The translations under genes were made by a program, and so were the position numbers. From contig NC_089430.1 of NCBI RefSeq assembly GCF_026210795.1, positions 5,084,001 through 5,148,000 of the forward strand: a DNA stretch of 64,000 nucleotides. Direction: 5' to 3'. The stretch comes from Rhizophagus irregularis (lineage: Eukaryota). The notes below the pieces were generated by a model that saw only the letters and a program-made list of their open reading frames with translations, was not told where the DNA came from and searched no databases. Shown here in pieces: positions 6,400 through 58,340 of the stretch (the stretch's first letter is position 1; each line of letters begins with the position of its first letter).

Positions 6400-6508
6400 G
6401 TTTCAGGTCAACAGGTCAATCAGGTCAGGTCAATCTTCATACCTGACCTGAATTTTTTTCAAAAATCTCATACCTGACCTGAATTTGGCTGACCTGTTCG
6501 GAGCTCTA
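6400..6508. mobile_element. Isolated right end of a hAT-like element
   Basis: Ends ...GACCTGTTCGGAGCTCTA (reverse complement TAGAGCTCCGAAC) with ACCTG/CAGGT subterminal repeats. Resembles the end at 11519 and the TAGTGCTCC ends of 21321-24056. No partner end found. Confidence 0.6.
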
Positions 6509-7676: not shown

Positions 7677-10600
7677 CACTGGTAAAAAAATGGTCTATCC
7701 TACACATATCCTACACATATCTTACATATATCGGGTACTCAAAATGTAGAAAATCATACACAAATAATACACATATCATACACATATCCACTAGTCGAAA
7801 TAGGAATATTTGACCTCTAAAAAATTCAGCCTAAATTCGGCCAATTTTAAAAAAAATCGACCTAAATTAGTAATGATATACAATTCAATCTATATTCGAC
7901 TCTGATTTGATCCTGCAGAATGATGGTCGAAATGCGTATAATAAAATTAAACTATATTCAACCTAACAGAATAATGGTCGAACTATAACTTTTTTTTTAC
8001 AAAAAATATAAAAAATAATGGCCGAATTGCATGCTTTTTTTATTCACTTTTCTAGATAAAATAGTGGTTATACTATATTAATAATACTAAATATAATAAA
8101 AAAATAATTTGTTAAAAAATGTTTTGAAATTCGAATTGGTGTAAATACCAGTTCGAATGTTATATTAAATCAACGCAAATGGAACTTTCTATTTATAGGA
8201 ATAACGGCTAAATATTCCCTGGCATTAGATCAATCCGATTTTTTGTATTTTACAGGTATAAACTGACCTAAAATATTGTGTATCAGGATTATATTGTCTC
8301 TACTGCTTGGGTAGAAACTATCTTTCCATAATTCGATGTTGCAAGTTTCGACATCATCGTCAATACTGAAATGGAATCGAGATGTCAAATTTGCCAGTTT
8401 GTACCATTTGATGTAAGCCAATTTGTGTGTCAAATTACGGGAAGATAAATGAACGCTATGTTCGAAAAAAAATTGGATTTGACCTGGGTAAGTATCAACG
8501 CTATTCCCATCACGATTAATAAATTTAGCTAAGACGAATGAGCTCTTAATATGTCGTGTTGCAGCAGCAGATCCAAAAGTTTCTGCACAGATTTGACATC
8601 TTCCATATCGATTCGCTCTGTTGATAATGATCGTTGAATTGGGTAAATTTTCCGTGAACGGTTTTCTGAATATAGAATCTACATATGTATCCTCGTAATA
8701 TTCGATAAGTAAATCGAAGATTTGTTCCTCAAGATGAATATCTTTGGATTGCGGTGCTAAAAATTTACCCGGAAATTCCTCACAACCAGTAATTGGTGAC
8801 TCCGATATATTTCTGGAATTCATCAAAAATCGATACATTTCATCTGTTGGAAATTCGGAAAGAGAACTGACAGAAGGTCGTTTATCGAGTAATTCCAGTC
8901 CTATTACTTCTGAACTTGAACTATTAATAATATCATTTATTTGCGCTTCGGTCATCAATTGACGCATTAGTTCAGGTTCGATTTGGTGGTGGCTATTAGG
9001 CAAAGATCCTAATAAATAATTTATTATTAATCTTTGCTAAATAAAATAATATAATTCGAAAAATTGACACAATTAAATTTGAATTACCTAATAAGCCATT
9101 CATTCGATTAAAGCTAAAGCACCAGAACGAATACAGAGGTCCGTAATCGTAAGAGCACTCGCATAGATGTAATGATAGGTGGAGGTTTGGCGTTATTTTT
9201 TCTTCGCCATAGCATTCTTCGATCAATTTAATTATCTTTATCAAAAGTTCATGGGCTTCTTTCATATCGTTAATCTCCACAATTCGTCTAACCAAAATCG
9301 TACAAACTCTTACGAAATACGTAAGAATTTTGCGATCTTTACCCGGAAGATGATTCCATAAAGCAACAGTGGCATATATTAGGAAAAAGTTGCGCCATTG
9401 GTCAGCGGTAAAGTTAGAAAACCCTTCACCACAATGGATTTTACCAGGAATTCGTCCCAAATCTGATGGTACTTTAAATTCGTTTATTTTCTTTTGAATT
9501 GATTGAAGATCTTTTTCTGTTAATACACCTTCGTCAATCCATATTCGTTTTGTTATCCATTTAGAGATTCCTAGAAAAAGGCAATGCATCGGATCTACAA
9601 CAACAAAACGAATCGGATCAAAATACGGCAGTCTTAATATTTCAGACCACCTTACGCCATTCTCCTTGACAAATCTCTCTCTTTCTGCGTTAGATTTGCA
9701 TCGTCGCCATTCTAAAGCCTTTTGACAATGCTCGACTGGATCTTTCATGATAAACCAGTTGCTCATATCCGCCATACCACCAAAATTGCGATTATTGGCC
9801 CTTTTTCGCATCGATGGCATGATGCAAGGGCAGAGATGTGCCCGCATAATTTTCGAGCTCCAGGAATATCGCACGAAGCAATTATTAATGCAGCTCGAAT
9901 ATCTTTGCCATTTGGACATTCATAAGTGCGATTAAGAATCACACCTTCCCAAAGTGATTCTAATTCCATGATTATTGGTGAAAGGTAATGATTTACTCTA
10001 TGTAATTTAACCTCATTGGGCCCTGGTAATATGCCGAGTATAAGCATATTTTTAGGCTTAAATCGAACATCCCAAAGTAGATTACATATTATTGCGTATA
10101 TTACACCTGTACTGTAAATCGTTCCTTCGTACGGATGGAACCAATCCAAATTTATCATTAATCCTAGATGAGTATCAGTCTTGTCCGGTCGGAAAAAGTT
10201 ATTTGACCCTTGTTCGTTTGATTCCTTAAGATTTTGCCAAATTTGCCCGTCGTATATGTCTGATAAAACATTATCAATTACTGAACAACGAGTCCAATGC
10301 CGCAATAATTCTTCAAATCCTGGTCGCTTGAACATACTAGAAAGCTGCTGTTGTATACTCGAGACCGGATAAATTAATTCAGGAACAATTGATATACTAT
10401 TATTTAAAGAAATTTTTTTTCCTAAAGGAGTTTGACATTGCTTTAATCTCTTTGTGGCCGAATTTGGAAATTCGACATGGCTGCATTTCATAATAGTATT
10501 ATCATCATTTGATATTATATCCTTTTTTTTGTATAATTTGTGGCATTTTTGGCAAGCTGCAAATTGCGTAAATCGATCGATAAGTCCTAACGCTTTTCTT

Positions 10601-11518
10601 AACATATATAATGAATTTGGAAATGATTCGGGATTGATATTTTTACACACTTTCAATATTATTTTAATAAATTGTATTAATTCTTCAATTGCGGTATTTG
10701 GTATATTATGACTCGACCTGAACTTCATAATCCAAATCAAAATCCCCTTAATTAGTTCATCTGTTGGTAATTCTGAAATATTCGGTGTGTCTGAAATATC
10801 TGGTATGTCGAACATAGGATGAGAATAATTCTCAAAATTACTTGAAAATTCGTTATCATCATTATTAGGAGAATCTTCTTGTGCCGAAGATTCACTAGTG
10901 TAGATATCATCCGTGTCATATTCAGTTGATTCACACTGGTCAAAATCTATGCTATCGGGTATATATCGGGCACCTATATATCGGTGACTAATCAGATATA
11001 TATCGGGTATTTACATATATCGGGTACATATCGGGTACCCAATATGTCACCGATATATACTGGTATATTTCGGGCACCTATATAATCAGATATATATATA
11101 TTTCTAATATATATCGGGTACTAATATTTGTATGATACATTTTGATATATCGATATCGATATTCTATTAGTAGAATTTGATAATCTAAATTTGATTAACC
11201 GTCATACCGGTCGATCAATCTATTTTTAATAAAAAAAAATTTCATATTCCTTTTATATCCTTACCTCTATTTTTTTAAGTTGCCAGACTCTTTGAACGAA
11301 CCTGGGCTTTGGAATGTAAGTTGGAAAGATGCGGATTATTTTAATATTAAAGAAACGTTACTAATGTTTCTTTCTCTTGTTTTTTTAGGTTTTGGACTCC
11401 TTGGACTATCTCAAACTTTAGAATGTAAGTTGGAAAGGTGATTATTTTAATATTAAAGAAACGTTACTAACGTTTCTTTCTCTTGTTTTTTTAGGTTGCC
11501 GGACTCCTTGGAGTGAGC

Positions 11519-11640
11519 GAGAGCTCTGAACGGGTCAGGTCAGGTCGGGTAACCTATTCTGACCTGACCTGACCCGTCTGACCTGAAAATATTCAGGTTA
11601 ATTCAGGTCACTTCGGGTAATCAGGTAACCTGAAATTTTT
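11519..11640. mobile_element. Left end of a hAT-like element inside the non-autonomous CACTG element
   Basis: GAGAGCTCTGAACGGGTCAGG followed by GACCT/AGGTC repeats, similar to the reverse complement of the end at 6508. Partner end not found. Confidence 0.5.
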
Positions 11641-11899
11641 ACATGAAAAAAAACTCCAATAGTATGTTATTTATGTATACAATTTATAAAATTATTTATA
11701 TTTATTTTAAATACATTTTATTTTTGAATACATTTATTATTTTACATTAATTTGTTGTTAATAGTTTGGAACAATGTTCCAGTTGGTTCGATTCCAATAA
11801 ACAACTATTAAAACTTAATAGAGAAAAAAAAAGAAACGTTAAAACGTTTCTCAAAGTCAATTTCAAACGCCACCCTTAAAGAAATGTTTGCCCATTCAA

Positions 11900-12900
11900 A
11901 GTGTCATTCCAGCAAGCTAAACCCTACAAGGATCAAAAAAAAGAAACATTAGTATGTTTCCATCTTTAATATCAAAAGAATTCCCTTCTCCCGGTACCTT
12001 TGCTGCATAAGTTCAGATTCGTAAGAGTCCGGCGTCCTACAAGAGAAAAAGGAAAGAAGCATTAAAAATGTTTCATAATTACAAAACACCACTCTCCCCT
12101 TCCCTTATTCCTTACATTCAAAGTCCGGGTTCGATTTGTTTCCAAGAGTCCGGTGTCCTAATCCTACAAAAAAAATAAAGAAAGAAACGTTAGTACGTTT
12201 CTTTAATATTAAAGAAAAAATTCCCCATTCCCTATTCCTTACATTATCCAAGTCCAGGTTCGTTTTCAAGAGTTTGGCATCCTAGTCCTACAAAAAAAAT
12301 AAAGAAAGAAACGTTAGTACGTTTCTTTAATATTAAAGAAAAAATTCCCCATTCCCTATTCCTTACATTATCCAAGTCTGGGTTCGTTTTCAAGAGTCCG
12401 GCGTCCTAGTCCTACAAAAAAAATAAAGAAACGTTAGTACGTTTCTTTAATATTAAAGAAAAAATTCCCCATTCCCTATTCCTTACATTATCCAAGTCCG
12501 GGTTCGTTTTCAAGAATCTGGCGTCCTAGTCCTACAAAAAAAAATAAAGAAAGAAACGTTAGTACGTTTTTTTAATATTAAAGAAAAAATTCCCATTCCC
12601 TATTCCTTACATTATCCAAATCCGGGTTTATTTTCAAGAGTCCGGCATCCTAGTTTTACAAAAAAAAGAAAGAAACGTTAAAAATGTTTCTTAATTACAA
12701 AACAGTAACCCTGGCCTCCTTCTCTCACATTACCTTTATTGTGTAGGTACAGTTCGTCCTGGTCTCTAAGGGTCCGACGTTCTACAAAAAATAAGAGTCC
12801 GACCTACAAAAAAAAAATAAAAGAAAATATAAAAAAAAATGAATTTTTTTTTATATGATGATAAACCGAATATAGCAGTGTCGATTTCAGTTGCTTACCG
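11900..12900 (-). repeat. Tandem ~120-bp micro-exon/intron units
   Basis: Minus strand per unit: GTAAG...AAAGAAACG-TACTAAC-GTTTCTTT...TTTTGTAG, then a ~45-nt exon-like segment. Four near-identical units at 12160-12660 plus diverged flanking units. Confidence 0.8.
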
Positions 12901-13480
12901 AACCTAGATTCACGTTGCCCCTCCGGACTCCGGTGAATTTCACTTTAATCAAAATTTTTAAATTTATCCCAGTAAAATTCACCAGATGATTTCATATTAC
13001 ACAAACGCGTAGCACATATTTTATTTTTTGCTTTCTTGTAGTATTATTTCCAAAATGGCCAGCTTTTTCTGGAATTTCTTAAGGTAAGATTTTTTTATTT
13101 TCTTATTACTTCGCTAGTTTAATGTTCTTTTTCTTTATGCTAACTTGTTAACTTGTTTTTCAGAAAACAACAATTTCAAATAACTTCAAAGAGTTTAAGG
13201 TAAGACTCACTTTTATTACTAGTATTTTGCTATTTTATTGTTTTCTTTATTGAAAATGATACTAACAGTTTCTTTTATTTTCTATCATCCACTTTATTCC
13301 CTTTTCATTTTCTATATCCATTTCACTCTCTTTTTATTTATTTTCTATTATTTTTTTCGCTCCTTTTGTTTTTATTATTTCATTATTCCCTTCGCCTCCA
13401 TTTTATTTTTCTATCATGATTCCCTTTGTTCTTATTTTGTTTTTAATTATCCTTTTCATTTATCATCGTCCCTTTTGCTT

Positions 13481-14710
13481 CCATATCGTTTTTCATCACT
13501 CCATATCGCTCCATATCGTTTTTCATCACTCCATATCGCTCCATATTGTTTTCCATCACTCCACATCGCTTCATATCATTTTTCATTACTCCACATCGCT
13601 CCATATCATTTTTCATCACTCCATATCGCTCCATATCGTTTTTCATCACTCCATATTGCTCCATATCATTTTTCATCACTCCATATTGCTCCATATCATT
13701 TTTCATCACTCCACATCGCTCCATATTGTTTTCCATCACTCCATATCGCTTCATATCATTTTTCATCACTCCATATCGCTCCATATCATTTTTCATCACT
13801 GCATATCGCTCCATATCATTTTTCATCACTCCACATCGCTCCATATTATTTTCCATCACTTCACATCGCTTCATATCATTTTTCATCACTCCACATCGCT
13901 CCATATCATTTTTCATTACTCCATATCGCTCCATATCATTTTTCATCACTCCATATTGCTCCATATCGTTTTTCATCACTCCATATCACTCCATATCATT
14001 TTTCATCACTCCATATCGCTCCATATCATTTTTCATCACTCCATATCGCTCCATATCATTTTTCATCACTCCATATCGCTCCATATCGTTTTTCATCACT
14101 CCATATCGCTCCATATCATTTTTTATCACTCCACATCGCTCCATATTGTTTTTCATCACTCCACACTGCTCCATATCATTTTTATCACTCCATATCGCTC
14201 CATATTGTTTTTCATCACTCCATATCGCTCCATATTGTTTTTCATCACTCTATATCGCTCCATATCATTTTTTATCACTCCACATCGCTCCATATTGTTT
14301 TTCATCACTCCACACTGCTCCATATCATTTTCATCACTTCGTTTTTCATTACTCCACATCACTCCATATCGTTTTTCATCACTCTATATCGCTCCATATC
14401 ATTTTTCATCACTCCACATCGCTCCATATCATTTTTTATCACTCCACATCGCTCCATATCGTTTTCATCAATCACTCCACATCGCTTCATAACATTTTTC
14501 ATTACTCCATATCACTCCATATCGTTTTTCATCATTCCATATTGCTCCACATCATTTTTCATCACTCCATATTACTCCATATCATTTTTCATCACTCCAT
14601 ATCGCTCCACATCATTTTTCATCACTCCATATTGCTCCATATCGTTTTTCATCACTCCATATCGCTCCATATCATTCCATATCGTTTTTTATCACTCCAT
14701 ATCGTTTTGC
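13481..14710. repeat. 30-bp minisatellite (CCATATCGCTCCATATCATTTTTCATCACT), roughly 40 copies
   Basis: Directly visible periodicity; produces the long low-complexity ORFs on both strands. Confidence 0.95.
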
Positions 14711-17517
14711 AACATTCCACTTCATTTTTTATCATCTCAATTCGCTTTATATTGTTTCATTTTGTTTTACATCATTTCATTTCTTTTCCATTTTGTTTTC
14801 ATCATCCCATTTCACTCCCATTTTATTTTTTCATTATCTCCTTCAATTCCATTTTATTTTCCATCGTTCCATTTTGTTTTACATCATTCCATTTCACTCC
14901 CATTTTGTTTTTTGTCATCCTATTTCATTTTTCATCATCTCTTCACTTCTATTTCATTTTCATCATCCTTTTACTCCAATTTCATTTTTCACATTGTCCT
15001 TTTAATTCACTTTCATTCACTTCATCCCTTTTTCACATATTCATTTCTTTTCCATCATAAAATTATTAATTGTTAACTGAATTATAAAGGATTATATCTT
15101 ATGCATTATTATAGGTTTTAAATTAATAAAAAACCTAAATTAAATGGTTAGTGAATGGGTGTAATGGTATATATAAGTAGGGTTTTGTATTATTTAAAGT
15201 GATAAAGAGTTTAACTTGCAGTGTAATTCTAGTATAAATAGCATAGTGAGTAGTACAAAGTTTGCATGAACGTTAAATGCATTTTTATTAATCCGGATTG
15301 ACATAAAATCTATGGCCCAATCGCCCAATCAGAATTTGTTATTGTAATCAGGCGATTGATCACATAATTTAAGTGTTTATATTTCGCACTGTGTTTATTT
15401 TTTTTTTCTTTCCGTCGTAAAAACCTTTTTCTTAAACTTTTTTATTATTTAAAACAAACTAAACAAACTCTTTACTTAGTTATTATGAAATAATATTATT
15501 AATATTTTTTTTTTATTTTTATACTTAGAAATAAACATAAAGGTATATTTTCATTATACTTGTTTTTTTCTTTTTATATATATATTTTCTATTGACGTTC
15601 TAATATTTTTTTCTTTTCTCCCACTAATGTTTTCTATTACTAACATTTTCTATTAATATTAAATACTACTAACGTTTTTATTAACGTTCTCCTATTAATA
15701 TTTTCTATTTTACTAACTTTTCTTTTTTACTACTAACATTTTACTAATATTTTCTATATTTACCACTAACGTTTTTATTAACATTTCCTTTTTTCTCTTA
15801 TTAATTAATACACTTACTAATATTTTCGCTAATATTTCTTTTAAATAATAAACAGATATAACAAAAGCAAGCAAAGAGGTAATTTTATTATCATTGCTAC
15901 TTTCAGTAGAACTTTACATATTACATAGTATAATTATGTTCAACTTTATTTGATTTTTACGTAACAGATAGTGTAAGATTTGTATTATTGCTTTTATATA
16001 AATAAATTTATAAATTTTAATAAAATTGAATTTCATTTAGCCCAAATTAAAATAAAAAAAAGAGATATAAATCTATTAGTTTTAATATGAAATTGTCAAA
16101 CGTATACAATAAAAATATATATTACCAATATTTTACATATTTTACTACCCGATATATGTGTGTTAAATGTATGATATCTATAATATATATCACTGATATT
16201 TTACTACCCGATATGTGTGTGTTAAATGTATGATATCTATAAGATATGTCAATGATATTTGACTACCCGATATGTGTAAGATGTGTATATGATGTTTACA
16301 TGATATGTCACCGTTTTTCTACATTTATACTACACATATCAGGTACCCGATATGTGTAGTATTGTTAAATATCATACACATATATTACATATATCATACA
16401 CATATCAGGTACCCGATATGTACCCAATAGCACCAATTTTGACCAGTGTCAGCGACTTGCTCAACTTCAGTAATATGACGAAGTGTGCCTGTTTTTGACC
16501 TTTTTTTACGTGGAAGAAATACATATTGTTGTTCCTCATACATATCATTATCAGAATATGTATCAATAGATATTGTCGTATCTTGTGGTTCTACTAACGA
16601 TATTGTCGTATCTTGTAGTTCTACTAACGGTATTGTCGTATCTTGTGGTTCTACTAACGATATTGTCGTATCTTGTAGTTCTTCTAACGATATTGTCAAA
16701 TCAATCAGTTCTACTAACTCTTGAGACGTTGGAGCCTTATCGGAATTTAATGGTTCTAAAGAATTCATTTGCTCGTGTCTCTCCTTTGTGCGCGGATCAA
16801 TCATTTTCCCATTACAATTGCTGCAATAGCACGGAACCTTCGATCTTGGTTTCTGGTCGTAAATTCGGCATAAGTTCGTTCAGAGGTTGAAGAACTCAGA
16901 TTATTATATTCGTCCAAGATATTAGCAGCAATGCATTTTCTTCTCCCTTTATTCATTTTTTGATAAAAGTCAGATATGATAAAGTTGTAATATGTTTTTA
17001 CGTTGAATAAAATTGTAATTATTAATATCAAATTTTTAGTGATGTCGAATTTTTAGTAATATTGTGATTTTTTATATTCCGTTTTTAAAGTGATATTGAT
17101 GGTATAATTAAAAAAACCATACGAAAATTGGATGAAATAGACAAAAAATTGAACGAAAATTGAATAAGTATAGGAATTTAAAAATAAAACATACGTATCA
17201 CCATACTATTTAATTTGATTTAACAGTTTCATTAATTGAAAGTCTAATTTGATGCGAAAGTTTAAGTCTGATTGATGAAAAAGTTTAAGTCTAATTTGAT
17301 CTGTTTAATTAATTGAAAGTCTAATTTGATGCGAAAGTTTAAGTGTAATTGATCGTTGATTGTTGAGAGTCTAATTTGATACAAATGTTTAAGTGTAATT
17401 GATCGTTGATTGTTGAGAGTCTAATTTGATAGTAAAAAATAGATATAAAAGGTGGACCAATTTCCTCGTCCGTACAAAAAATCTCTTTCTTTTTTTTTTG
17501 AAAAAAAAAAACCAATA

Positions 17518-19800
17518 ATGACTCATAAGAAACCATCAAAACCAAATACTCCTCCACCAAATATTGCTGAGTTGTCAACACCAGCACCACAAAATATTGC
17601 CACTTCGTCAACACCAACACCTCCAAATATTGCCACTTCAACACTGGACTTACGATCGTAAGCATCAGCATTACGAAATATTGCCATTTCGTCAACATCA
17701 ACACCACAAAATATTGCTTCTTCAACAGCAACACCTCCAAATATTGCCACTTCGTCTACACCAACACCTCCAAATATTGCCACTTCAACACCGGCATCAC
17801 GATCGTCAGCATCAGCATCATGAAATATTGCTTCTTCAACACCGGCATCATGATCGTCAACATCAGCATCACGAAATATTACCACTTCGTCAACACTAAC
17901 ACCACAAAATACTAATACTACAGTTTCTTCATCTCCCTTTAAACTCGTTATTCTGCCAGATATTTCAGCCTCAATAGGTCGAACTCAATCTCAATCTCAA
18001 CGAAATTTAACGGCTTCAGATATTATTAAAAAATATCCTAATATTAATGTACCAAAAAGTTATCGTTCACATCACGAAGAAGGAGCACCAAGAAGTGATC
18101 GACCAAGTAATGAAGAAGCGGGTAAATCGAATTTGTTATTTTTATATTTTGATATTTATTATATTACATCTGTTTGTTACATATCCTTATAATTTAAAAT
18201 AGGTAATTTTGAGTTAGGAAATTTAAAAAAAGAAACCCTTCGACTACAGAACGAATTAAAACAAGAAAAGTCCAAAGTAGCTGGAATGAAACGAAAAATA
18301 GATAATTTAGAAGACCATGTTCGTAGAATCGAGGAGGAGAACTCCATGTTACGGGATTTTAATGAAATTTTTAGTAACGAATCGAATGAATTATGTGAAG
18401 AAAATAAAGCTCTTCAAGAAGAACTTCAACAATCCAAACAACTTCACATACCTCGAAAGATTATTAATCCTCCGCAGCAATATTCACCAAAGCGTCCCAA
18501 TAAAAGATTAAAATCGAGAGAGGAATCTCCTGATGAAGTTGCCGCTACAGATGCAAGAGTAAGAATTTTACAAGACTATTTGCAGCCGAATTGTGTTAAT
18601 GTATATATACAGCTTTTATTATTTTATTATTTCCTCTTATTGTTTAGGCTGAAATGAAGAACCTCTTGAAAGGTCAAATACCCAAAGAATATCGGTTGGA
18701 TTATGGTAAGACTTTCAGTGAACAGACAGCAAAGATATACAAAAAATTGATACCTGAATTAAAGAAGTTGATGAGTGGACATTATAATCTGTCGGTAACC
18801 CAATTGTCAGACTGGTTACGATCGATGCACAAGCATAAAAGAGATAGACAACGGAAACAACAATCAGGCCAATTAGACAAAATAGATCAAAGAATGCACG
18901 TAAATGCGCGATTGTCCGAAGTGAGGAGTATTTTATTTTAATACACTTCTTTTTTTTTTAGTCATTTGAAATTAATCTTTATATATTCGACAGAAAAAAA
19001 ATAGACGAGTAAAGGCCGCAATAAAATTATACGAAAGAAATGATGCCAACATACAGGAATTCGATAAAGATGAATTATTACCAATGCTCCTACAGAATGA
19101 TTGTCATTCGATTGAGCAATCAGATTCCGAAAACGAATCAAGACAGAAATTGCCTAATAACAAGCGGTTCCTGCATGTATACGATCGGGAATGGCGTTCG
19201 AACAAGGTATTAAAGTGATTATTGCTATTAACCTATTTTAATATTTATTCGATATATAAAGTTTATCTTTGTTTTAAATAGTTAAAACACCTATTACGAA
19301 ACGTATTGGACCCTGAAGCAGAATATATTCAACACGCAAAAAAGCAAAGAGAGAGAATTTATGATGATGACATGTATTTTACGTCTAGTGAACCTCTCAA
19401 GAATACGCCCGAATGGGCACTCGATAAAGCGAAAATGTACGAAACTGATGAACCAACGAAACAAATAACGTTAGCGAATATGACGCGGCTGATGATGTGA
19501 TTGATGATTTGATTCAATCTTACGAAGATTGTGAGCCAATGGAGCTGAATTTAACGGAGCCATATTCAGATTTCTTGTTAAATTCAGCGGAAATGAATTC
19601 GATTAGACCCGAAGATTTGGATGAGATTGGTGAAAGTTCGACGACAGTAAGTTTAATTGTTTTTAATATTTTTACATCGCAAATATCGCTAATTAATTTT
19701 GTTTATATCATATTAGCAACAAAGAGCCGAAAGGAGTCAAAAAGGCAAAGAAAAAGCCACAAAAGAAGCAAAAGAAGACGAGGAAATTTATGAAATCTTT
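17518..19800 (+). pseudogene. Transposon accessory gene copy 1 (repeat-rich N-terminus, coiled coil, conserved helical domain)
   Basis: Predicted exons 17518-18121, 18203-18558, 18648-18920, 18994-19206, 19282 onward, with GT-AG junctions. Homologous to 35550-38095 (AEMK, KLIPEL, WL..MHK, VYD..WRS, LLRNVLD, RERIYDD). Stops at 17659, 17821, 17851. Confidence 0.75.
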
Positions 19801-20511
19801 GAAGCCGACAAATATAATTAGTATATTTTATATTTCTTTTTTTTGGTTGGTTTATTGGGTTTATTTTTTATTATATGGTATTATTAGTATATTTTATATT
19901 TCTTTTTTTGGCTTAATATGGTTGGTTTATTGGGGTTTATATATTATTATGTACATGGGTTGATTTATATAATTATATTACTATACGTCAATATATATAA
20001 AATATAAAATAAACGGGTTTTATTTGCTTATACTATGCTTTATTATTCGTCCTTGAAAACTCTATTTATCAATAATATTCGGGTTACATATAGTAGTCGA
20101 ATATGGTTTTTTTTTAGGGTCGAACAAATATGTAATAACGTCCTAATATAGGTCTAATTTTAGCCGAATATCCTTTCCGAATTTGAGTCTAATTTTAGCT
20201 GAATATCCTTTCCGAATTTGAGATGATTGGCACCCTAAATGCGCCCGAAAATTCGACCTTAATTTGACACAGGTTAGATTGTCATTTGACCTATATTCGA
20301 CCTGGTCAAATTTAGGTCGAATTGTCCTATTTCGACCAGTGATCGGGTACTTATATATATAGTATACCTATCAGGTACCTGATATATGTATGATATATAT
20401 ATTAGTACCCGATATGTGTATGATATGTGTATTATTTGTGTATGATTTTCTACATTTTGAGTACCCAATATGTGTAAGATATGTGTAGGATAAATCATTT
20501 TTTTACCAGTG

Positions 20512-20708: not shown

Positions 20709-22079
20709 TTTTTGAAATTGATTTATGGTGAATAAGTTTTTTATTTGACGCTAGCAAAGTAGGTTAATTTATATAAAAACATTAAGGTTTTTTACATGTT
20801 GATTTATTATATTAACTTGTTTAACAATAAATTGACTATGTGCTTTAATAATATTAACAATATTTAACAATACAGTATTGCTTGACGTATTGCATGGTTT
20901 ACACAATGTTAACAGTTAGTGATACTGATTACAATCAATCAAGAAATACATACATTAAATTAATCAATCATCGTGTCATTTAAATATTTAGGTAAGAATA
21001 TCAAATGATACCATCAGTTAACTGCGTAATGATACTGATGAAAATATTCACATTTAAGGTGTCAACAAACACAACAAACATCATAGAAATTAACGCATAA
21101 TTATTATTATTAGTACTTTTATGACGAATAAAATAAAGGATTAATTAATACAGTAAACTGGAATGTCCAAAAGCAAAACCGAGCATTGGATGAAGGTAAT
21201 TATATTTTGTTAGAAATTTCACTTGTTAAAATTTACATCCTCAATATTTACAATTTCCTGTTAAAATTTTCTCTCTTCTTCAGATTTAATCTCTTTCTTC
21301 TCTTTATTGCTCACCTCTACTAGTGCTCCGAAAAAAATCTGATCTGATCTGGGATCTGCAGATTTGATCCTAGCCAGATCGGTTCAGTTTTCAAAATTTT
21401 GATCCGTAGATCAGATCGGATTTAAAAAAAATTTGATCCGATCAGATTCAGATCAGATCAGATCAAACACGAGAAAATCTGATCCGATCTGAACAGATTT
21501 CAGATCAGATTTTTTTTTTAAAACCCTTTCCTGGACGAACGGACGCCGGATGACCAAGATTTAAAAGAATGAACTAGGTAAGTTCGTTTCTTTTTTTTGT
21601 TATTTTTACTTGAGGGAACTTAATTAATGGTTCCCTTCTTTTTATTAGGAAGCCTGGATGAACGAAGCCTAACGACCAGGATTTAAAAAAAAAGAACGAA
21701 CCTATGGTGAGTTCGTTCTTTTTTTTAAGGTTTTTTTTTATTTTTTATTTAAGGGAACGTAATTAACGTTCCCTTTCTTTTTTTTAGGAAACCTGGACGT
21801 GGACAAAGTCATTAACGACCAGAATTTAAAAAACGAACGAACTATGGTAAGTTCGTTTCTTTTTTTAAGTTTTTTTTTTTATTTTTACTTAAGGGAACAT
21901 AATTAACGTTCCCTTTCTTTTTTTTTAGGAAACCTGGACGTGGACGAAACCATTAACGACCAGGATTTAAAAAAGAACGAACTATGGTAAGTTCATTTCT
22001 TTTTTTAAGTTTTTTTTTTTATTTTTACTTAAGGGAACGTAATTAATGTTCCCTTTTTTTTTTTAGGAAACCTGGACGT

Positions 22080-23460
22080 TGTCACCCCCGTCTGCCACCC
22101 GGCGGTAAACAAAACTTCCATGCTTTAACGTATATTCATTCTTCACGAAACATTAATATTCTTGCTTGGTTTAGTTTTATTACTACTTAACTTTCAAATT
22201 GCGATAGCTCTCGCCACGATATTTCATCCTTTCTCTTTCAAATTTACGATAGTTCTCTTTACGAAAGTTTATATTTTATTCATTTCATAATTCTTGTTAT
22301 GACATTAAATTCACCATGAATTTGTCCAATTAAAATTAATTAAGCGAACATTACAATAAAGTTTAGGGCGAACCTATTACCTTTAAAATAACATTACGCT
22401 TTACTAACAATTAATTAAACAAAATTACTTTTTCATCATAAGAAAATAGTAACAAAAACAATCGAAACAATTAATTTTCATATAAAGGGTATTTTATTTA
22501 TTCTTCATAAAATTCACAATTAACTAATTTACTTAAAGTTTTACATCATATCTGACGACTGTGGAATTCACCTCCCATTCCGCTCCTATTTAAACCAACT
22601 TTCTTATTCTTTCTTTTCTTACTTCTTATTTCTTTCTAATATTTTATGTTATGTGTTCCCTTTTATGCGCTATCTTATATGCTATTTATATATTATCTTT
22701 TCTAATATGTTATACTATTTTAATACGCTATCTTTTCTTCAAAATAATCTTTCAAATATTATGTCGTAAAGATATAATCCATCTTTTGTGGCTGTGCTAT
22801 CTTTTCTTTAAAATAAAATAATCTTTCAAATATTATATCGTAAAGATCCATCTTTTGTGGCTGTGCTATCTTTTCTTTAAAATAAGATAATCTTTCAAAT
22901 ATTATATCGTAAAGATCCATCTTTTGTGGCTGTGCTATCTTTTCTTCAAAATAAAATAATCTTTCAAATATTATATCGTAAAGATCCATCTTTTGTGGCT
23001 GTGCTATCTTTTCTTCAAAATAAAATAATCTTTCAAATATTATATCGTAAAGATCCATCTTTTGTGGCTGTGCTATCTTTTCTACTGCGTCTCGTCAGCT
23101 ATTCTTCTACTGCGGCTGCAGTTCATCAATATTTTACATGTTTTTATTTTTTTGTTCCCTTAATTCGCTATCCTTCCTTTTTATATGATTTATCATTTGT
23201 GGCTTATGATTACTCCTCCTAATTGTTCTTATTGTTGAACTTGATAAACTGGTTGCTAAGCCACATCGATCAACTCCCTACTTGATCTATTGGTTCTCCG
23301 TTAATTATTTAATAAACATTACATCGTGTAGATCATTCCTTCTCCTAAAAGTTTATCCTTTCCGGTTAATTTTATCCAATCATGTGACTTTCTATTGTTT
23401 GATCTTTTATTCCATATTATTCCTCCATATTATGCGATTACTTCAGTATCTATGGCTACA
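22080..23460. mobile_element. Probable solo LTR (1381 bp), TG...CA with 4-bp TSD
   Basis: Begins TGTCACC, ends GGCTACA, flanked by ACGT on both sides. Removal restores the CCTGGACGTGGACGAA exon seen in neighbouring units. A Ginger-type origin is not excluded. Confidence 0.75.
22728..23082. repeat. ~69-bp tandem repeat, about 5 copies, inside the putative LTR
   Basis: Repeated GCTATCTTTTCTT...AATCTTTCAAATATTATATCGTAAAGATCCATCTTTTGTGGCTGT. Confidence 0.9.
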
Positions 23461-24859
23461 ACGTGGACGAAGCCATTAATGACCAGGATTTAAAAAAAGA
23501 ACGAACTATGGTAAGTTCGTTTCTTTTTTTAAGTTTTTTTTTTATTTTTACTTAAGGGAACGTAATTAACGTTCCCTTTCTTTTTTTTTAGGAAACCTGG
23601 ACGAACGAAGTCATTAAGACGTTAATGACCAGGATTTAAAAAAAAAGAACGAACTATGGTAAGTTCGTTTCTTTTTTTTAGGTTTTTTTTATTTTTACTT
23701 AAGGGAACGTAATTAACGTTCCCTTTCTTTTATTTTTAGGAAACCTGGACGCGAGACGAAGCTGAACGACCAGGATTTAAAAGAACGAACTATGGTAAGT
23801 TCATTTTTTTATTTTTATTTTTATTTTTTACTTTAAGGAACGTAATTAACGTTCCCTTTCCTTTTTTAGTACAAGGACCAGATCCGAACCAGATTCAGAT
23901 CAGATTCAAATCAGATTCAAATGGATCTGAACCAGATTCGGATCAAATTGAACCAGATCTGATCAGATTCGGATCAGATCAGATCTATTAAAATAAAAAT
24001 CAGATCGGATCAGATTTAAGCTAAATCTGGTCTGAACCGATCTGTTAGGAGCACTAACCTCGACTAGTTGTTCTGTTCATCGTTTAATGCTTTCATTTCT
24101 AGCTGTCCATAGTTACTCATCATGTCTACTTCATCAGCAGAAATTCAATTTGAAACATCACATGATTTCGTAAGGATGAACAACAATTAATACTTTTTGC
24201 AATGTGATGAATAACAACTAATACTTTTTTGCAATGTAGGTGTTGAAATTCAAAGTGAAGAAATGAATCAGATTTGTCGTTGCAACACGTGACATGACTA
24301 ATACTTTTTTGTGATGTGGGCATTAAAATTTGAATGAATCGTTGTAATACGTAATATTGTGCCACAATTTAGTCTTAAAGTAACATCTAGTTAAGTAATT
24401 ACATTAATTATGTTTGTTACAAGTTACACTGGACACTAAGTAAGTATACTAATCATTAGTATACTTGAGTATACTTACGTATAGATAAATCAAGTAGATC
24501 ATCACACATAAGAGTTAAAAAATGATTACTTTTTTTTTCTCACATTCTAATATTTTTTTTTTCTCATTCTCACATTCTAATAATCAATTAATTCTCTCTT
24601 GTCAGTCATCTTTTTATCAATGGATAATGACAACAACAAAAATAATAATAATAAAACCAGTGGCAAACGCTCTTTAGATTTTAATAATTTAAAATGCCAA
24701 AACCTACTACTAGATCTAGTACTAGGTCTTAAAGATGTTAGCCTTAATTATTTTTTAAAAAATTTTGAATTACGGCTATAAGATTTTTATAGCCTTAATT
24801 AATTACGGCATATAAAAATTTTGTATTACGACACTTTTTTGAATTACGGCTAACATCTT

Positions 24860-27700: not shown

Positions 27701-30599
27701 CTGACAATGATATGACATATAATTTGATATTATATCTATATCATATTAATATAAGGCTGATATCAGAATAACATTTGTTAGAATATTTTTCATAAATAAA
27801 ACATTTAATTGATGTTATAACTGCAACATAGTGATATGAAATTAACATCAAAATAACATTAATAAAATATTGAATTAATATCATAACTGCATCATAATGG
27901 TACGGATTAAAGTATTTAATTGATATCATATAATGATCTTAATAACAATATTATAACATTAAAATGATACTAAAATGATATTTTATTGATATAAAAATTT
28001 CTTTTATTTATTAAATTTTTTTAAATTACATTCAACTCATCATATCAATTGATTGAATGGATTTGAATATATTTTTTTGAAAAGACATGAAATACATTTA
28101 CAATTTACTAATGGTAATTCCCGATATAATAATTAAAATTGGACTCGTAAAAGAGGATGACCAACTTTGATTTGATTATTATGGTTAAATAAAAGACATC
28201 ATGATGTTGGATGTGAAGCAAACGTCATTCATTAGTGCTGTTATTAATTATTACAAATTACAAAATACTTATAATTTTTGTTTCATACCTGCTATATTTT
28301 ACACGCTAAATAATAACAAGATATGCTCACATGCTTCACCCGATACCTAAAAAAAAAAAAAAAAGAACAGTTAGAAACCGTCCATAATAATAAACAAAAT
28401 AAAAAAAATAAAAATTCGTACCGAATCTTTAGTTTTTTCCGTTCCTCAGAATCCACCTGAACCTATAAAAAAAAGGAACGGTTAGTGACCGTTCCATAAT
28501 ATTAAAAAAAAAAAAAAAACTAAACCATTCATTCATTAATAGTTCAAAATATATCAGACTATTTTTGATCACCTGATATCGCCTATGTTTAAAATACTGC
28601 GGTAAAACACTAAAAACATCACCAGAAGATTAAATGTTGAATCGATTGACCTTCTACTATTCTGTTGTATTTCAATCAAATAAGGTTTAACAATATGATT
28701 CATAACATAATTGAAACTTGACAATTTTTAAAGAAACAATAAATACATACTTACGTGTAAAGTTTATTCACAAAGGCGGTCTGTATTTTACGAGCTTCAG
28801 CCACGAAGTATTCCTAAGTACGTAAACGCACATAAAAGTGATAAAACATTCTTATAGGTAATTTAATTATTTTGAAAGATGCTACAAAATGTAAAAAAAG
28901 GAACGTTATCATTGATTGTCAAACACCAAGTATCAAACGTCTATATATCTAAGCTAGCTAATATTACAAGAGATGGCTACAAAATATGCAAAAAAAAGCG
29001 CTCGCCTCAGAATTACTAAAATTAATTTAGAGAAGTCTTCTCTGTTTTACACATTTTCATTTTGAGAGGTCGGCCAGTTAAGATTTCCCGATATTAGTCT
29101 TATCAGTCTCTGGCAATCCACTTAACTTGATATTTCAATTATAAATTAAGTCTGACGGTGCTACATAATAATTACAATCATAAGTAAATTCCTGACCTTC
29201 AAAATTAAACGTGTTCAGCTGGTTATATATTATATATAATTAATATTGTATTTTTACAGCAGTCACAATAATATAATAATCAATAGCTGACCGTTATGTT
29301 TAGTACCTTACAACAGCAAGCCAAAAGATCCATGTGGTAAAACACGTATTTAGTATTTGCGCACCTATTTAATAGCTCTATCTAATAAACCATTATTATT
29401 TAATATAAAGTTTCTTCGTATTACTATAACATATATAATAAAATATTAAAAATCACTTAACAAAATGTTTTTGATAAATTTTGATAAAAAATAAGCTTTG
29501 CGTTCAAAAGAAAAACACCAGAACGCATTTTTGAAAAATAGAAAAATAAACAAATCGTATATATTTAAGTAGCTATTTTTAGATGCATATGGCAACTGAT
29601 TTTTTATTGGTCAATTTTTAAATTCAAATCATATATATTTGAGTAGCTATTTTTAGGTGCATATGACAACTGATTTTTTATTGGTCAATTTTTAAATTGC
29701 GAATCTTAGCTTATAGTTGGGTTTCTTCTGAAAGATATATAGTGTTGTAGGTTTAAGTATAATTGTAGATGCAACTCCCGGAAGATAGAATAATGTGGTA
29801 TCAGCATATTTTTTGTTGATGTCGACATATTATATATTGGTCGTTGAAGCAAGCATCTTTGGCAGCAATTTTGATTTTATCTGAGTGCCAGCATTATTTA
29901 TGCTAATGGGATTATGATTGTATTTTTTTTTACCATAACAGATAATTCTTTGATGAAGAAACCGTGGAGCAGTAGGCAAAATTTTCGTAGGGGTGGTATT
30001 TGTTGATGTAAAAGGTGACCATTTGTTATAAAACAAATATGATTTTTGAAAGGATTTTATCTGTTCTTCATATGGCTTTTGGATGTTGGATTGCAGCTTT
30101 CGTACTTCAAAGAAAAGAGCTATTTGATCGAACGATCAAAGCCATACTCACGATTGCAGGATTTCTTTAAAGTTTCCACAAGTGAACTAAAATTGTTAAT
30201 TGAATATATTTTAGGTTCACAAGCTTCTTCTTTCTGAAATTTTCGCATCCTTCTGCATCTTATATTCATTTTTTCATTTCTATTATTATATTAGGTTTAT
30301 CTTGGTGAACTGGTCGGTTTCTCAGGCGGACTTTTATTTTTAGCATAGTACTAGATTTACTGCAGATGTTTTTGTGGATTTTATTATTATTAATATTAGA
30401 ATTAAATATTAATACCGGAAAAATCTGGTTCAACATGTTATTATTGTAATAACTGAGGGATGGTTTCTGCAATTCTGCATAAAGAATTCCACTGGTCGAA
30501 ATCAAAAAAATCGGACATATGGAAAATCAGCTAAAAATCAGACCAAAATCGACTGACATTACAAATCGGCACATCTGATTGATGCCAATCGGACAATTT

Positions 30600-35074: not shown

Positions 35075-35470
35075 TAACGCAGTAGAACGCTAACAATTTT
35101 CGTAATTTTAATTTATTTGTCTTTTTAATTATGATTTATAATTGATTTTTCAATCGAGAAATCAACGCAGGACGCTAACGATTTTCTTATTAATTAATTG
35201 ATTTGTCTTTTTAATTATGATTTATAGTTGATTTTTCAATCGAGAAATCAACGCAATAGGACGCTAACGATTTTCTTATTAATTAATTTATTTGATTTTT
35301 TAATTATGATTTATAGTTGATTTTCCTTGAGAAATCAACGCAGTAGAACGCTAACGATTTTCTTATTAATTAATTGATTTGTCTTTTTTTATTATGATTT
35401 ATAGTTGATTTTTCAATCGAGAAATCAACGCAGTAGAACGCTAACGATTTTCTTATTAATTAATTGATGA
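35075..35470. repeat. ~87-bp tandem repeat, 4-5 copies, in the divergent intergenic region
   Basis: Recurring AACGCAGTAGAACGCTAACGATTTTCTTATTAATTAATTG...GATTTATAGTTGATTTTTCAATCGAGAAATC. Confidence 0.9.
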
Positions 35471-35549
35471 TTTTTAAATTTATAAATAGGACGATATGAC
35501 GATATTGAACCCGCTTCGATTTTTTAAACGAATATTGAGTGAATATAAA

Positions 35550-42059: not shown

Positions 42060-43850
42060 TGCGTAGCAGAAGACTAGCAGAAGTATCATGGAAAGTATTT
42101 ATATATATTCATAGGCTTTATGAATATTTATAATATTAATAAATTATACATGAAAAAGCTTTGCAACAGCTGCTGGAAAAATGAACGCGTACTTTCAATA
42201 TAGTAGAAGTATGGAAGTTATTTATATTTCATAATTTCATTAATATTCGTAGGTTTACAACTATTTCATAATATTAATAATTGTTCATGGAAAGTTTTGC
42301 GTACAATATAATGGTAAAGGTATGGAAAGTATTTATACTCCATAATTTAACTATTTTATATAATATTAATAATTATAACTGTTGGTCTAACTTTTGAACT
42401 TATAAAGTAAAAATAAAATTAATGCGTGCTCTCAATGTAGTAGTGTAGAAGGAATGGAAGGTATTTGTACTTTGTAATTTCGTTAATGTGTTTACGTCTT
42501 TTTTATAAAAAATATTAATAATCACGCATAATGAACTGTTGGTTTAACTTTTTGAACTTGTAGAAATAAAGTTAACGCGTGCTTTCAATGTAGTAGTGTA
42601 GAAGGAATGGAAGGTATTTGTACTTTATAATTTCGTTAATGTTCGTATGTTTACGTCTTTTTTATAAAATATTAATAATCACATAAAATGACAACTGTTG
42701 ACCCAACTTATTGAACTTGAATATTCGTTGATGCAGAAATGAATTTAACGCTCTCAACGTAGTAGTGTAGAAGGAATGGAAGGTATGTACTTCACGATTT
42801 CGTTAATGTTCGTATGTTTACGTCTTTTTTTATAAAAAATATTAATAATCACGCATATTGAAACTGTTGGTTTAACTTTTGAACTTGTAGAAATAAAGTT
42901 AACGCGTGCTCTCAACGTAATAGTGTAGAAGAGATGGAAGGTATGATCACAACTGTTGGTCCAACTTTTTGAACTTGTAATTGTTTGTTTGACGTAGTAG
43001 TGTAGAAGGAATGGAAGGTATGTACTTCACGATTTCGTTAATGTTCATATGTTTACGTCTTTTTTATAAAAAATATTAATAATCACGCATATTGAAACTG
43101 TTAGTTTAACTTTTTGAACTTATAGAAATAAAGTTAACGCGTGCTCTTAACGTAATAGTGTAGAAGGGATAGAAGGTATGTATTCCTTAATTTCGTTAAT
43201 GTTCGTATGTTTACGACTTTTTAATAATAATCACAACTGTTTGGTCCAACTTTTTGAACTTGTAATGTTTGTTTGATGTAGAGATGAATTTAACGCTCTC
43301 AACGTAGTAGTGTAGAAGGAATGGAAGGTATGTACTTCACGATTTCGTTAATGTTCGTATGTTTACGTCTTTTTTATAAAAAATATTAATAATCACACAT
43401 ATTGAAACTGTTGGTTTAACCTTTTGAACTTGTAGAAATAAAGTTAACGCGTGCTCCCAACGTAATAGTGTAGAAGGGATGGAAGGTATGTATTCCTTAA
43501 TTTCGTTAATGTTCGTATGTTTACGACTTTTTAATAATAATCACAACTGTTTGGTCCAACTTTTTGAACTTGTAATGTTTGTTTGATGTAGAGATGAATT
43601 TAACACATGTTCTCAACGTAATAGTGTAGAAGGAGTGGAAGGTATGTACCTCACAATTTCGTTAATGTTCGTAAGTTTACTTTTTTTTTATAAAAAATAT
43701 TAATAATCACGCATAATGATAACTGTTGGTCTAACTTTTGATCTTGTAATATTCGTTGATGCAGAAATGAATTTAACGCATGCTATCAACGTAGCAGTGT
43801 AAAAGGACTGAAGGTATGTACTTCATAATTTTGTTAATGTTCGTACAACT
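42060..43850 (+). repeat. Tandem 100-180 bp units built around TAGTGTAG|AAGGAATGGAAG|GTATGT
   Basis: About 10 clear copies at 42430-43820, with diverged copies upstream. Confidence 0.85.
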
Positions 43851-48568: not shown

Positions 48569-51500
48569 TTACAATTGAGAAATATCAATTTGTAGTGATT
48601 CTATTTAATAGAAAGAAATTAGTATTTTTTAAATAATAAACTGATATCATTTTATTAAGCAATACCTGAAGAATTCGAACTAATCACATCATCATTTTTT
48701 TTGTAAGAATCATCAGAATTATCTGGCTCAGGAAAATTACTTAATTGTAGAATATCACTTTGTAAGGATTCTATTTAATGAATTAAAAATTTATTAATAT
48801 ACTTACAATTAGTTTTATTTTTTATAAAACATACCTTTTGTTTTTATGTTAAATTTGTCATTTTTCTTATAAATATCATTTGAATTTTTTAGTTCATTGA
48901 AATTATTATTTTCCAATTGAGAAATATCAATTTGTAAGGATTCTATTAAAGATTAAACCTGATCAGTATTTTTTACAATTAATATGAAAATTTTTTTTAC
49001 TAATAATACCTGAAAATTTCATGCTAATTATATTATCATTTACTTCATAATAATCGTCAGAATTTTTTTGCTCAGGAAGATTACTAAAATCAAGTAATCT
49101 ACTGGTATAAACAGCTTCTGAATGTGTTACATAAGATATTCCTAAATTTGTCGAAGTTATACTGCTATTTGATGAACTTTTGTTTATTTCATCAATTTCC
49201 TTAATTTGCTTTTGTATACTTGTATAATTAATAATATTACTATTATTTATCAAATCAACTAATTCTCTAAGCCATTGACTTAAAGTTTTTTTAATTTCTT
49301 CTGCATTTGGTCGATTTGATTGATTTGCATCCAAGCATCTTTTAATTAAATGCACAATCAAATAAGGTACTTTAATATTAAACCTTGGTCGAAGTCCTTT
49401 ACAAATTTTCATTGTTAAATCTATATCATGACCTACATCATAATACGGAGGTAATCCAGAAATTACTTCATACATTACTATACCAAAACTATAAATATCT
49501 GCAGCTTTTGTATAATTTTGTCCACGTAAAATTTCAGGGGCAATATAAGGTAAAATACCATATATTTTGCTTTTTGCATTTTCCGATGTATTATAATCAG
49601 CAGGTTTACATAATCCCATATCAGTTATACAAGTGAGATTTTTGAGCCTTAATATATTACCAATATGCAAATCTCGATGAATTAATTCTATTTCATGAAT
49701 ATTTTTGAGTCCATGTGCAATGCTATGTAAATAATTAATCTTATCACCCCAATTCAATTTACTATAATTTGTATCTAAATAATTTCGTAAACTTCCATTT
49801 TCTGCATAATCTAAAACCATAATGTAATTTTCAGTTTTTGGGTCTTGAGTTATTCCATAAAATTTAATAAAGCGTTTATGCAAATTTACTTTATGATGTA
49901 ATGTAATCTATAAATATTATAAATAAGTATCAATACTTAAATTAAATATTTATTAAGAATAGTTAAATAGCTTACCTCATTCATAAATTCCAATGTAACA
50001 TTTCTTGAATTATTTAAACTTTTCAGAGCTACAACCATGTTTTGATCCTTTCTTTTCCAATTTTGATTATGATCATCCCATTTATCAATATAACCATCAA
50101 ACCATTTTGCTTTATATACTTTTCCAAACCCACCTTTTGCAATATATTTAATATCATAAAATCTATCATAAGGTATCCATTCTAATACATTTTTTACACC
50201 ATAATAACAAGCATGTTCTGATAGCTGAGTATCTTGAATAAATTTATCGATAACATTATTACCACTAGTCAAATTTTTAAAATGATACACTTTATTACAT
50301 TTTTCACATATATTCTCCAAAACGACCATATAGTTCTTGGTTTCTGGATCTTGAGTTATTCCATAAACTTTAGAAGGTACTGCAATCTATAATGTATTTA
50401 AAATTAAAAAATTGGTAAAAATTAAAATTTCAACTATTTGTTTTTTTAAGCATCTGGCAATTTTTTTTTTTTTCACAAATGGTACAATACAATATGATTA
50501 ATTTGTATTACAATTCACAAAAAAAATGAAACTTTTAATAAATTTATTATACCTTATTTATAAGTTTTAATGTAATACTTGCTGGATTATTTAAAATTTT
50601 CAGAATTACAAACATATTTTGACATTTTCTTTCCTTTTGATTTTCATTATTCCATATATTTATATATCCATCAATCCAATTTGCTCTGTAAATTTTGCCT
50701 AACTCATCATCTTCTGCAATATATTTAACATCATAAAGTCTATCATAAGGTATCCATTCTAATGCATGTGATATTTCACTATCCTTATGAACCAATAACT
50801 GAGTATCTTGAATAAATTTATCAATATCATTATTACCACTAGTCCAATTTTTAAAATTTCGTTGAAAACGCATTGAATCACATGCTTCACTACATTTTTC
50901 ACATTTATCCTTTAAAACTACCATATAGTTCTTGGTTTCTGGATCTTGAGTTATTCCATAAACTTTATAAAGTACTGCAATCTACAATATATTAAAATAG
51001 AAATATTAGTAAAATTAACTATTTGTTTTAAATTAACTGGCAATTTTTTTTCACAAAATGGCATAGTACAATGTGATTAATATATATCATAATTCACAAA
51101 AAAAATGAAACTTTTAATAAATTTATTCTACCTTATTTATAAGTTTTAATGTAATACTTGCTGGATTATTTAAAATTTTCAGAATTACAAACATATTTTG
51201 ACATTTTCTTTCCTTTTGATTTTCATTATTCCATATATTTATATATCCATCAATCCAATTTGCTCTGTACATTTTGCCAAACTCAATATATTTAACATCA
51301 TAAAGTCTATTGTAAGGTATCCATTCTAATGCATGTGATATTTCACTATCCTTATGAACCAATAACTGAGTATCTTGAATAAATTTATCAATATCATTAT
51401 TACCACTAGTCCAATTTTTAAAATTTCGTTGAAAACGCATTGAATCACATGCTTCATTACATTTTTCACATATATCCTTTAAAACTACCATATAGCTCTT

Positions 51501-57500: not shown

Positions 57501-58340
57501 TACACTTTGCCAAACTCATCATTTTTTGTAATATATTTAACATCATAAAGTCTATCATAGGTATCCATTCTAGTGCTTTCTTTACATCATCATGAGCATC
57601 TGATAGTTGGGTATCTTGAATGAATTTATCAATATCATTATTATCGCTAGTCCAATTTTTAAAATTTTGTTGAAAATGTATTGAATTACACACATTATTA
57701 CATTTTTCACATATATCATTCAAAACTACCATATAGTTCTTGGTTTCTGGATCTTGAGTTATTCCATAAACTTTATGAGATACTGCAATCTACAATATAT
57801 TAAAATAGAAATATTAGTAAAATTATCTATTTGTTTTAATCAACTGGCAATTTTTTTTTTCACAAAATGGCATAGTACAATGTGCGTGATTAATTTATAT
57901 TATAATTCACAAAAAAAAAAATGAAACTTTTGATAAATCTATTATACCTTATCTATATATCTTGATGTAATACTTGCTACGTTATTTAAAATTTTCAGAT
58001 TTATAAACATATTTTGACCTCCTCTTTCCCAATTTTGTTTTTCATCATTCCATTTATTCAGGTGTCCATCAGTCCAATTTGCTCTGTACACTTTGCCAAA
58101 TTCATCATCTGCTGCAATATATTTAATATCATAAAGTCTTTCATAAGGTATCCATTCTAATGCATTTCTTACCATATATTCATTATGATCTGATAGCTGA
58201 GTATTTTGAATAAATTTATTAATACCATTATTACCACTCGTCCAATTTTTAAAATTTTGTTTAAACCGTATTGCGTTACATTCGTAATCACAATCACATG
58301 ACTTAATCAGCTTTTTAACGCTTTTGATAAAGGAATCCAT
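48569..58340 (-). CDS. Giant TKL-type kinase with 15 tandem Cys-module/N-lobe exons, ~2500 aa if all exons are used
   Basis: Exons: 58340-57948, 57789-57362, 57211-56777, 56625-56191, 56072-55644, 55492-55058, 54939-54511, 54359-53928, 53777-53343, 53227-52796, 52680-52248, 52098-51664, 51548-51132, 50981-50553, 50386-49976 (all phase 0), catalytic exon 49907-49010 (HRDLHIGN, DMG, APE), tail exons 48942-48835, 48770-48666, 48600-48569. Exons 2 and 11 each carry a 1-bp indel. Confidence 0.85.

Follow-up and report, generated by a model that had tools for sequence, protein, structure and literature searches.

In the parts of the literature available to us, the closest known kind to the locus described here is the transposon-derived spliced lncRNA of Blumeria hordei (PMC10648671). 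Those RNAs are non-coding, contain introns and come from fungal transposons, and intron retention is their commonest alternative event. Most run antisense to retrotransposon genes; they typically comprise about two exons, and fewer than 1.9% of them have more than five. SCANR in Cryptococcus likewise concerns transposon RNAs with inefficiently spliced introns, which lie in coding transposon transcripts (PMC5851062). Introners link transposons with near-identical spliceosomal introns, each introner being itself one intron inserted in a host gene (PMC9860276, PMC12130899); the main texts of these two papers, as far as available, name neither Rhizophagus nor Glomeromycota. The non-coding RNA Gomafu/MIAT contains a repeated branch-point consensus, with exonic motifs that bind SF1 (PMC3116199). 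Concealed branch sites, in which a stem-loop hides the branch site, lower branch use, and breaking the stem-loop raised it, for example at the SF3B3 poison exon (PMC11162794). Introns counter silencing of a transcribed locus by HUSH even without splicing (PMC8770142); HUSH, a vertebrate complex that acts on retroelements and is not one shown in Glomeromycota, serves here as a model for a role of the array.

The locus compared here is a micro-exon/intron array at positions 11924-12898, on the minus strand of the 64-kb stretch of DNA that we analysed (the window). Unlike the Blumeria lncRNAs, arrays of this type have 8-12 stereotyped introns and exons of 20-70 nt, are carried by DNA transposons, bear a stem at the branch site and occur across superfamilies. 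No coding gene underlies the array, so it is not antisense to an element gene as in the Blumeria type; the apparent lack of a protein is shared. By contrast with SCANR, the introns are not those of coding transcripts, and their splice signals are stronger than those of the host. The array holds eight introns within one element rather than being a single intron in a host gene, and its branch motifs, unlike those of Gomafu, are each accompanied by a donor and an acceptor and are partly base-paired. It is therefore neither an introner nor an exonic repeat of the Gomafu type. SF3B3-type concealed sites belong to single regulatory introns of animal host genes, whereas the predicted hidden site of the array is repeated and lies in transposon RNA.

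The array is a real feature, with strand-specific splice signals far above chance. It comprises eight GT-AG introns of 74-95 nt (12898-12804, 12733-12650, 12610-12532, 12486-12412, 12366-12288, 12242-12164, 12115-12037 and 11997-11924, in order of transcription) and seven internal micro-exons of 70, 39, 45, 45, 45, 48 and 39 nt, respectively. The ~120-bp units that an earlier note had seen on this strand are real: they measure 120-127 bp, and TRF reported a core tandem repeat at 12095-12675 with a period of 124, 4.7 copies and 90% matches. The same note had described each unit as a textbook intron plus a ~45-nt exon. The eight introns do exceed chance; GTAAG is present in six of the eight donors and an exact TACTAAC in four of the eight branch motifs, and three of the seven internal exons are 45 nt long within a range of 39-70 nt. 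The array has a GT donor, YTAAY ~20-30 nt before the intron end, a pyrimidine tract and YAG, as in U2-type introns; because the genome is Rhizophagus-like and its owner thus likely a root-symbiotic fungus, standard eukaryotic splicing applies. An intron parser found six high-scoring introns on the minus strand and none on the plus strand of the array, and none of 200 dinucleotide shuffles yielded more than one. Across the window, at least three high-scoring introns were present in 6 out of 254 one-kb tiles, all six within this array or another at 21.5-23.9 kb.

At the start of most array exons, a second AG lies 6 nt past the first, so an exon could be 39 rather than 45 nt long. Among the four closest copies, 10 out of 45 exon columns vary compared with 3 out of 74 intron columns (p=0.004; p=0.045 when counting G+C sites only). 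The splice signals are thus the better conserved part of the unit, the reverse of the pattern that the earlier note had named as speaking against a spliced RNA. Upstream, the probable first exon (12899-13000, minus strand), whose start is a presumed one, ends at the donor at 12898 and lies within the span of an RNA-like contig (12566-13009, run X11). Downstream, inspection by eye suggested a probable ninth, decayed intron (11814-11891, minus strand) with a GC donor, a hairpin remnant and an AAG acceptor, followed by a probable AT-rich last exon (11650-11813, minus strand) with three AATAAA hexamers at 11738, 11722 and 11706. Two plus-strand introns (13084-13163 and 13200-13268) diverge from the first exon of the minus-strand array; an X11 contig with a depth of 97 crosses the second of these unspliced.

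The window is AT-rich and contains Tnp2 (PF02992), Plavaka (PF18759) and kinase genes. The best matches of one transposase from it are 91-98% identical and are proteins named after Rhizophagus irregularis by their sources. An outer CACTA-type element (7677-20511; target duplication CTC), with a Tnp2 transposase on the minus strand and a second gene on the plus strand, interrupts the Plavaka gene. A non-autonomous element (10934-16448; 3-bp target duplication TCA) splits the Tnp2 transposase frame, which is restored to an open frame on its removal; CACT-type ends, the 3-bp duplication and the Tnp2 partner identify this element as CACTA (CMC). It contains the array, a sister array on the plus strand (11279-11512; exons 11279-11315, 11389-11424 and 11495-11512, introns 11316-11388 and 11425-11494) and a 30-bp satellite. 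The array is thus carried by a non-autonomous element, as the earlier note had supposed, and lies beside a hAT-like end. The satellite (13300-15050) has ~40 copies and long stop-free frames on both strands, and is probably non-coding.

The sister array is 72% alike to the main array, is convergent with it and is cut by the hAT-like end at 11519; because the two are convergent and alike, read-through RNA from them (11279-12898) could pair. The hAT-like end (11519-11650) consists of a short terminal inverted repeat and TCAGG subterminal repeats, as do the end of the metagenome contig L011, to which it is 80.7% alike over 57 nt, and the element at 21321. We take it to be hAT from the end motif and from the 8-bp duplication of the sister element at 21321-24056; its partner end and an 8-bp target duplication of its own were not found within the 64-kb window. 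The main array reads towards this end, and this copy has lost one end and may be dead. Beside the Plavaka gene, 6410-6508 is a short remnant of the same end family.

The window holds two more related arrays. A complete hAT-like element (21321-24056, plus strand) has both ends and an 8-bp duplication with one mismatch; its body consists of a related seven-intron array in which the hairpin occurs as a compensated variant, and the element is interrupted by an insertion at ~22080-23460. At 28347-28530 on the minus strand lie two more introns of the array type, whose branch-site stem has another sequence. Other tandem structures were also present. The kinase gene (49900-58400, minus strand) has ~14 tandem exon-plus-intron units of 547-595 bp, each encoding ~145 aa. 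An 89-bp tandem array (35076-35480, plus strand) immediately precedes the second gene of a CACTA element, and its units appear by eye to be a short intron and a 28-nt exon. At 42400-43830 (plus strand), an AT-rich tandem array of ~158-bp units has a GTATGT donor-like motif in each unit; the branch hairpin of the main array was not found in it.

The earlier note had placed the branch sequence within a perfect inverted repeat and the branch point in the hairpin loop. A perfect repeat with a 10-bp stem and an ACTA loop is present in three of the eight introns (12425-12448, 12305-12328 and 12181-12204, minus strand), and a copy with one mismatch lies at 12550-12573 (minus strand). The five remaining introns each have at least one change in the repeat, the first intron having a different A/T stem, so this claim stands for part of the array. 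The placement in the loop was not upheld. The branch adenosine is the last A of TACTAAC; it opens the 3' arm at the top of the stem, where its predicted pairing is 88%, and the loop contains only ACTA. A whole array intron folds at z = -3.7.

We compared 37 non-redundant array introns with 31 non-redundant coding-gene introns of the window, assigned by eye. GTRAG donors occurred in 26 out of 37 array introns and 5 out of 31 coding introns, and YTAAC branches in 21 out of 37 and 3 out of 31, respectively, contrasts that are inflated by the parser's preference for strong signals at the donor and the branch site. The branch region was predicted to fold at -3 kcal/mol or lower in 22 out of 35 array introns (those without an exact match to the searched palindrome) and 2 out of 31 coding introns. 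Within the window and the loci studied, the hairpin is thus enriched in introns of transposon arrays relative to host introns, an enrichment for which the earlier note had proposed a test. The donor region reached the same fold threshold in 32 out of 35 array introns and 19 out of 31 coding introns. In several families the 5' splice site also lies in a hairpin: it is paired with the upstream exon in the 21.5-kb array (21835-21860, plus strand) and with the downstream intron in the metagenome contig L020 (885-915), and a further instance lies in the contig L035 (1185-1215).

For covariation, the alignment comprised 40 out of 53 parsed intron ends and two added by hand, and excluded six near-duplicates and seven introns without a recognizable arm. 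Changes on both sides were seen in 8 out of 9 stem pairs (reached by 5 out of 500 shuffles), 24 cells were changed on both sides (reached by 0 out of 500), and 84.7% of cells in the stem were paired compared with 42-61% when partners were slid, with controls that ignore relatedness and a structure derived from the consensus. The stems around the branch site at 21.5-23.9 kb and 28.3-28.5 kb differ in sequence. Mismatches comprised six G.U and nine A.C, showing neither a G.U excess nor a strand bias, so that selection on the RNA rather than palindrome formation at the DNA level is only a possibility. The stem may have originated at the DNA level through template switching.

Scanned for the palindrome, metagenome contigs yielded 36 matches and viral contigs none. 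We dropped 25 of the 36, which by eye had no flanking splice signals, and kept 11 AT-rich loci in which a donor precedes the motif and a pyrimidine tract with AG follows it; four of these represent one family. These loci were picked by the palindrome, and their context suggests a fungal origin. Contig L027 is 73% alike to the main array over 427 nt and also has the CACTA end of the 10934-16448 element (89% over 94 nt); in L027 and L030 the array reads inward from a CACTA end. In L011 the array lies before a hAT-like end of the 11519 type, and in L003 before a similar end. The array of L024, 70% alike over 481 nt, forms a unit of its own with CACGTG motifs upstream; it is flanked by an ORF on one side and, on the other, by a Helitron Rep/PIF1 gene that shares its strand and is separate from it. 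Contigs L035 and L020 have 12 and 9 introns, respectively, with exons that differ and are not copies of one. Over all array regions (7,870 nt), the parser called 46 sense introns and no antisense introns, and no more than two in 20 shuffles. The module thus recurs in CACTA, hAT-like and Helitron contexts, that is, in at least three superfamilies, and appears to have been exchanged between them. We also considered the array as the 5' UTR of a transposase, but in L024 and L009 it is a separate upstream unit, and this reading was therefore merged into the neutral alternative discussed below. In L009, an ORF that follows the array on the same strand (1598-1978) shows a BED-finger-like Cys/His pattern by eye and has no Pfam match.

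The RNA was seen spliced at a single point. We mapped raw reads from four unstranded runs with the same species label (three samples, two studies) to 11200-13300. Reads 99% alike numbered 38 out of 1105, 23 out of 1057, 14 out of 734 and 2 out of 1229, and so most of the reads came from paralogs; most match the intron 3' ends of the array and then continue into other exons. Two polyA reads of run X22 and one X11 contig (depth 3.6) contain the joint 11426-TGCC-11394, which corresponds to exons 11389-11424 and 11495 onward and is thus the spliced junction 11424|11495 of the sister array; it was absent among the joints listed for the DNA-like run X1. The array module can therefore be spliced. For the main array itself, no spliced junction was present among the 12 joints listed for raw reads and the 15 listed for contigs in eight runs. 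Runs X11, X9 and X14 gave near-identical unspliced contigs over it at depths of 2-11. Those of X11 bridge introns 12804-12898, 12650-12733 and 12037-12115, the contig at 12566-13009 differing from the window by one mismatch and two gaps, and one of X14 bridges intron 11924-11997. These three runs, which are not on record as RNA, look like RNA because the neighbouring transposase is nearly uncovered; the libraries being unstranded, antisense read-through or DNA may account for the unspliced contigs. The transposase intron 9009-9087, intended as a positive control, was uncovered in the RNA-like runs. The description "heavily spliced" in the earlier note thus goes beyond the data: the main array was seen only unspliced, and the one exact junction belongs to the sister array.

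In three RNA-like runs, a loose end fell at 11813, exactly at the last acceptor; a paralog in the DNA-like run X1 may explain it, so we did not count it as splicing. A paralog that has the 3' end of this hAT-like family in common (11635-11680 and 11777-11813) reaches contig depths of 187-892 in every RNA or RNA-like run; further upstream it diverges and may be spliced.

We consider it quite probable that the array is a selected non-coding splice-signal module. The whole account, in which it is a non-coding RNA gene of a hAT-type transposon whose hairpin-slowed splicing keeps the element open, is tentative, and we would place it slightly below an even chance. The array would be the body of a non-coding RNA gene on a non-autonomous, likely hAT-type DNA transposon, grown by tandem duplication of one exon-plus-intron unit. 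RNA polymerase II would transcribe it, for the copy at 11924-12898 from ~13000 towards the hAT-like end, and U1 and branch-binding factors would load on each unit. By analogy with the concealed branch sites of animals, the stem over the branch adenosine would slow branch use and hence intron removal. Our favoured guess is that prolonged spliceosome loading would keep the element transcribed and open, like a gene. Protection from silencing as the benefit to the element is speculative. We favour a benefit to the element because non-autonomous copies and a Helitron retain the module, and similar runs in several unrelated transposon types may help elements to stay active despite silencing. Doubtful, in our view, is the fullest form of the idea, a "splicing decoy" gene of AMF: a portable string of micro-exons that hAT, CACTA and Helitron elements exchange and that shields them from silencing. 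Such a decoy would combine the strongest U1 and U2 signals with concealing hairpins, so that the spliceosome is held and the element resembles a host gene.

The module could have the opposite effect. A hidden branch site might stall spliceosomes and give rise to siRNA against the element, as in SCANR, and the convergent sister array could supply double-stranded RNA. Introns are retained in the RNA-like contigs, the branch adenosine is predicted to be paired, Cryptococcus makes siRNA from poorly spliced transposon RNAs (PMC5851062, in the part available), and small-RNA loci of Rhizophagus lie on and near transposons (PMC8647823, likewise); the 72% likeness and convergent arrangement of the two arrays also fit. 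We nevertheless regard a silencing trigger as unlikely, though a serious rival: the splice signals of the arrays exceed those of the host in strength rather than falling short of them, and a self-silencing module would be a puzzling thing for several superfamilies to retain. To a neutral by-product, an untranslated exon-plus-intron unit of a transposon transcript that was tandemly amplified without RNA function, with a hairpin from template switching that copies the pyrimidine tract, we give the same low standing. Exon-intron units have been amplified in tandem in the kinase gene (50-58 kb) and in the arrays at 35.1-35.5 and 42.5-43.8 kb as well, perfect Watson-Crick stems without a G.U excess fit copying at the DNA level, and the element ends contain other palindromes. 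A neutral origin sits poorly, however, with a stem that coding introns lack and whose centre falls on the branch site even where families differ in stem sequence, with the 9-12 different exons of L035 and L020, with introns that vary less than exons, and with an array that forms its own unit in a Helitron.

Two further readings concern the product. The array RNA is likely non-coding, judged from its frames: over 32 acceptor combinations, the longest ATG frame of the spliced array is 16 aa, in agreement with the earlier note, which had seen no evident coding capacity in the exons. A decayed or unusual micro-exon protein gene would use the second AGs, with exons of 48, 39, 39, 39, 39 and 42 nt, to encode a repeat protein. 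Its best point is that these acceptors give a 120-codon stop-free stretch, and six of the seven internal exons are multiples of three. Yet no ATG leads that frame, and exons that start at the first AG put a stop in each repeat. The frame is not kept in relatives: 18 of the 29 exons outside the main array are not multiples of three, and spliced models of 13 array regions have longest ATG frames of 0-48 aa. By eye, most differences between copies alter the residue, and a protein search with the unspliced 58-aa frame, a weak test, found no match. We therefore consider a protein gene very improbable. Least probable of all is an RNA that acts in trans, whether as a sponge for U1, U2 or SF1 like Gomafu, as a source of stable lariats or small intronic RNAs, or as an intron donor. 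Each transcript would have many strong signals, Gomafu binds SF1 through tandem UACUAAC (PMC3116199, in the part available), and RNA of some paralogs of the family is abundant close to the end of the element; but the motif is predicted to be half buried, which is poor for a sponge. An Rfam search of 10900-16500 gave 11 matches, all below the gathering score and none over 11900-12900. The suggestion in the earlier note of a source of new introns found no backing, as none of 32 coding-gene introns of the window is an array-type intron, and introners are single introns rather than arrays. GGACT, which fits the m6A DRACH consensus, was present in 10 out of 23 non-redundant array exons compared with 2.1 expected from shuffles, an excess that shared ancestry could explain.

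Such arrays are undescribed in the literature searched, although supplements and the repeat libraries of AMF transposon papers may list the elements. A term search of the available parts of AMF genome and transposon papers (PMC10234402, PMC8647823, PMC11952901 and PMC13465315), supplements excluded, returned no such arrays, and the feature has probably not been described before. Uncharacterised repeats make up about a quarter of the genome of Rhizophagus irregularis, according to the available part of one of these papers (PMC8647823), and a recognizable non-coding module common to unrelated superfamilies would allow some of them to be identified and searched for by motif. Gene finders could mistake such arrays for orphan protein genes; a single search for such proteins found none. 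The compensated branch-site stems would offer a natural series for studying how structure affects branch-point use. The module would also make testable, in a fungus, the idea that transposons use the spliceosome to escape silencing or are caught by it.
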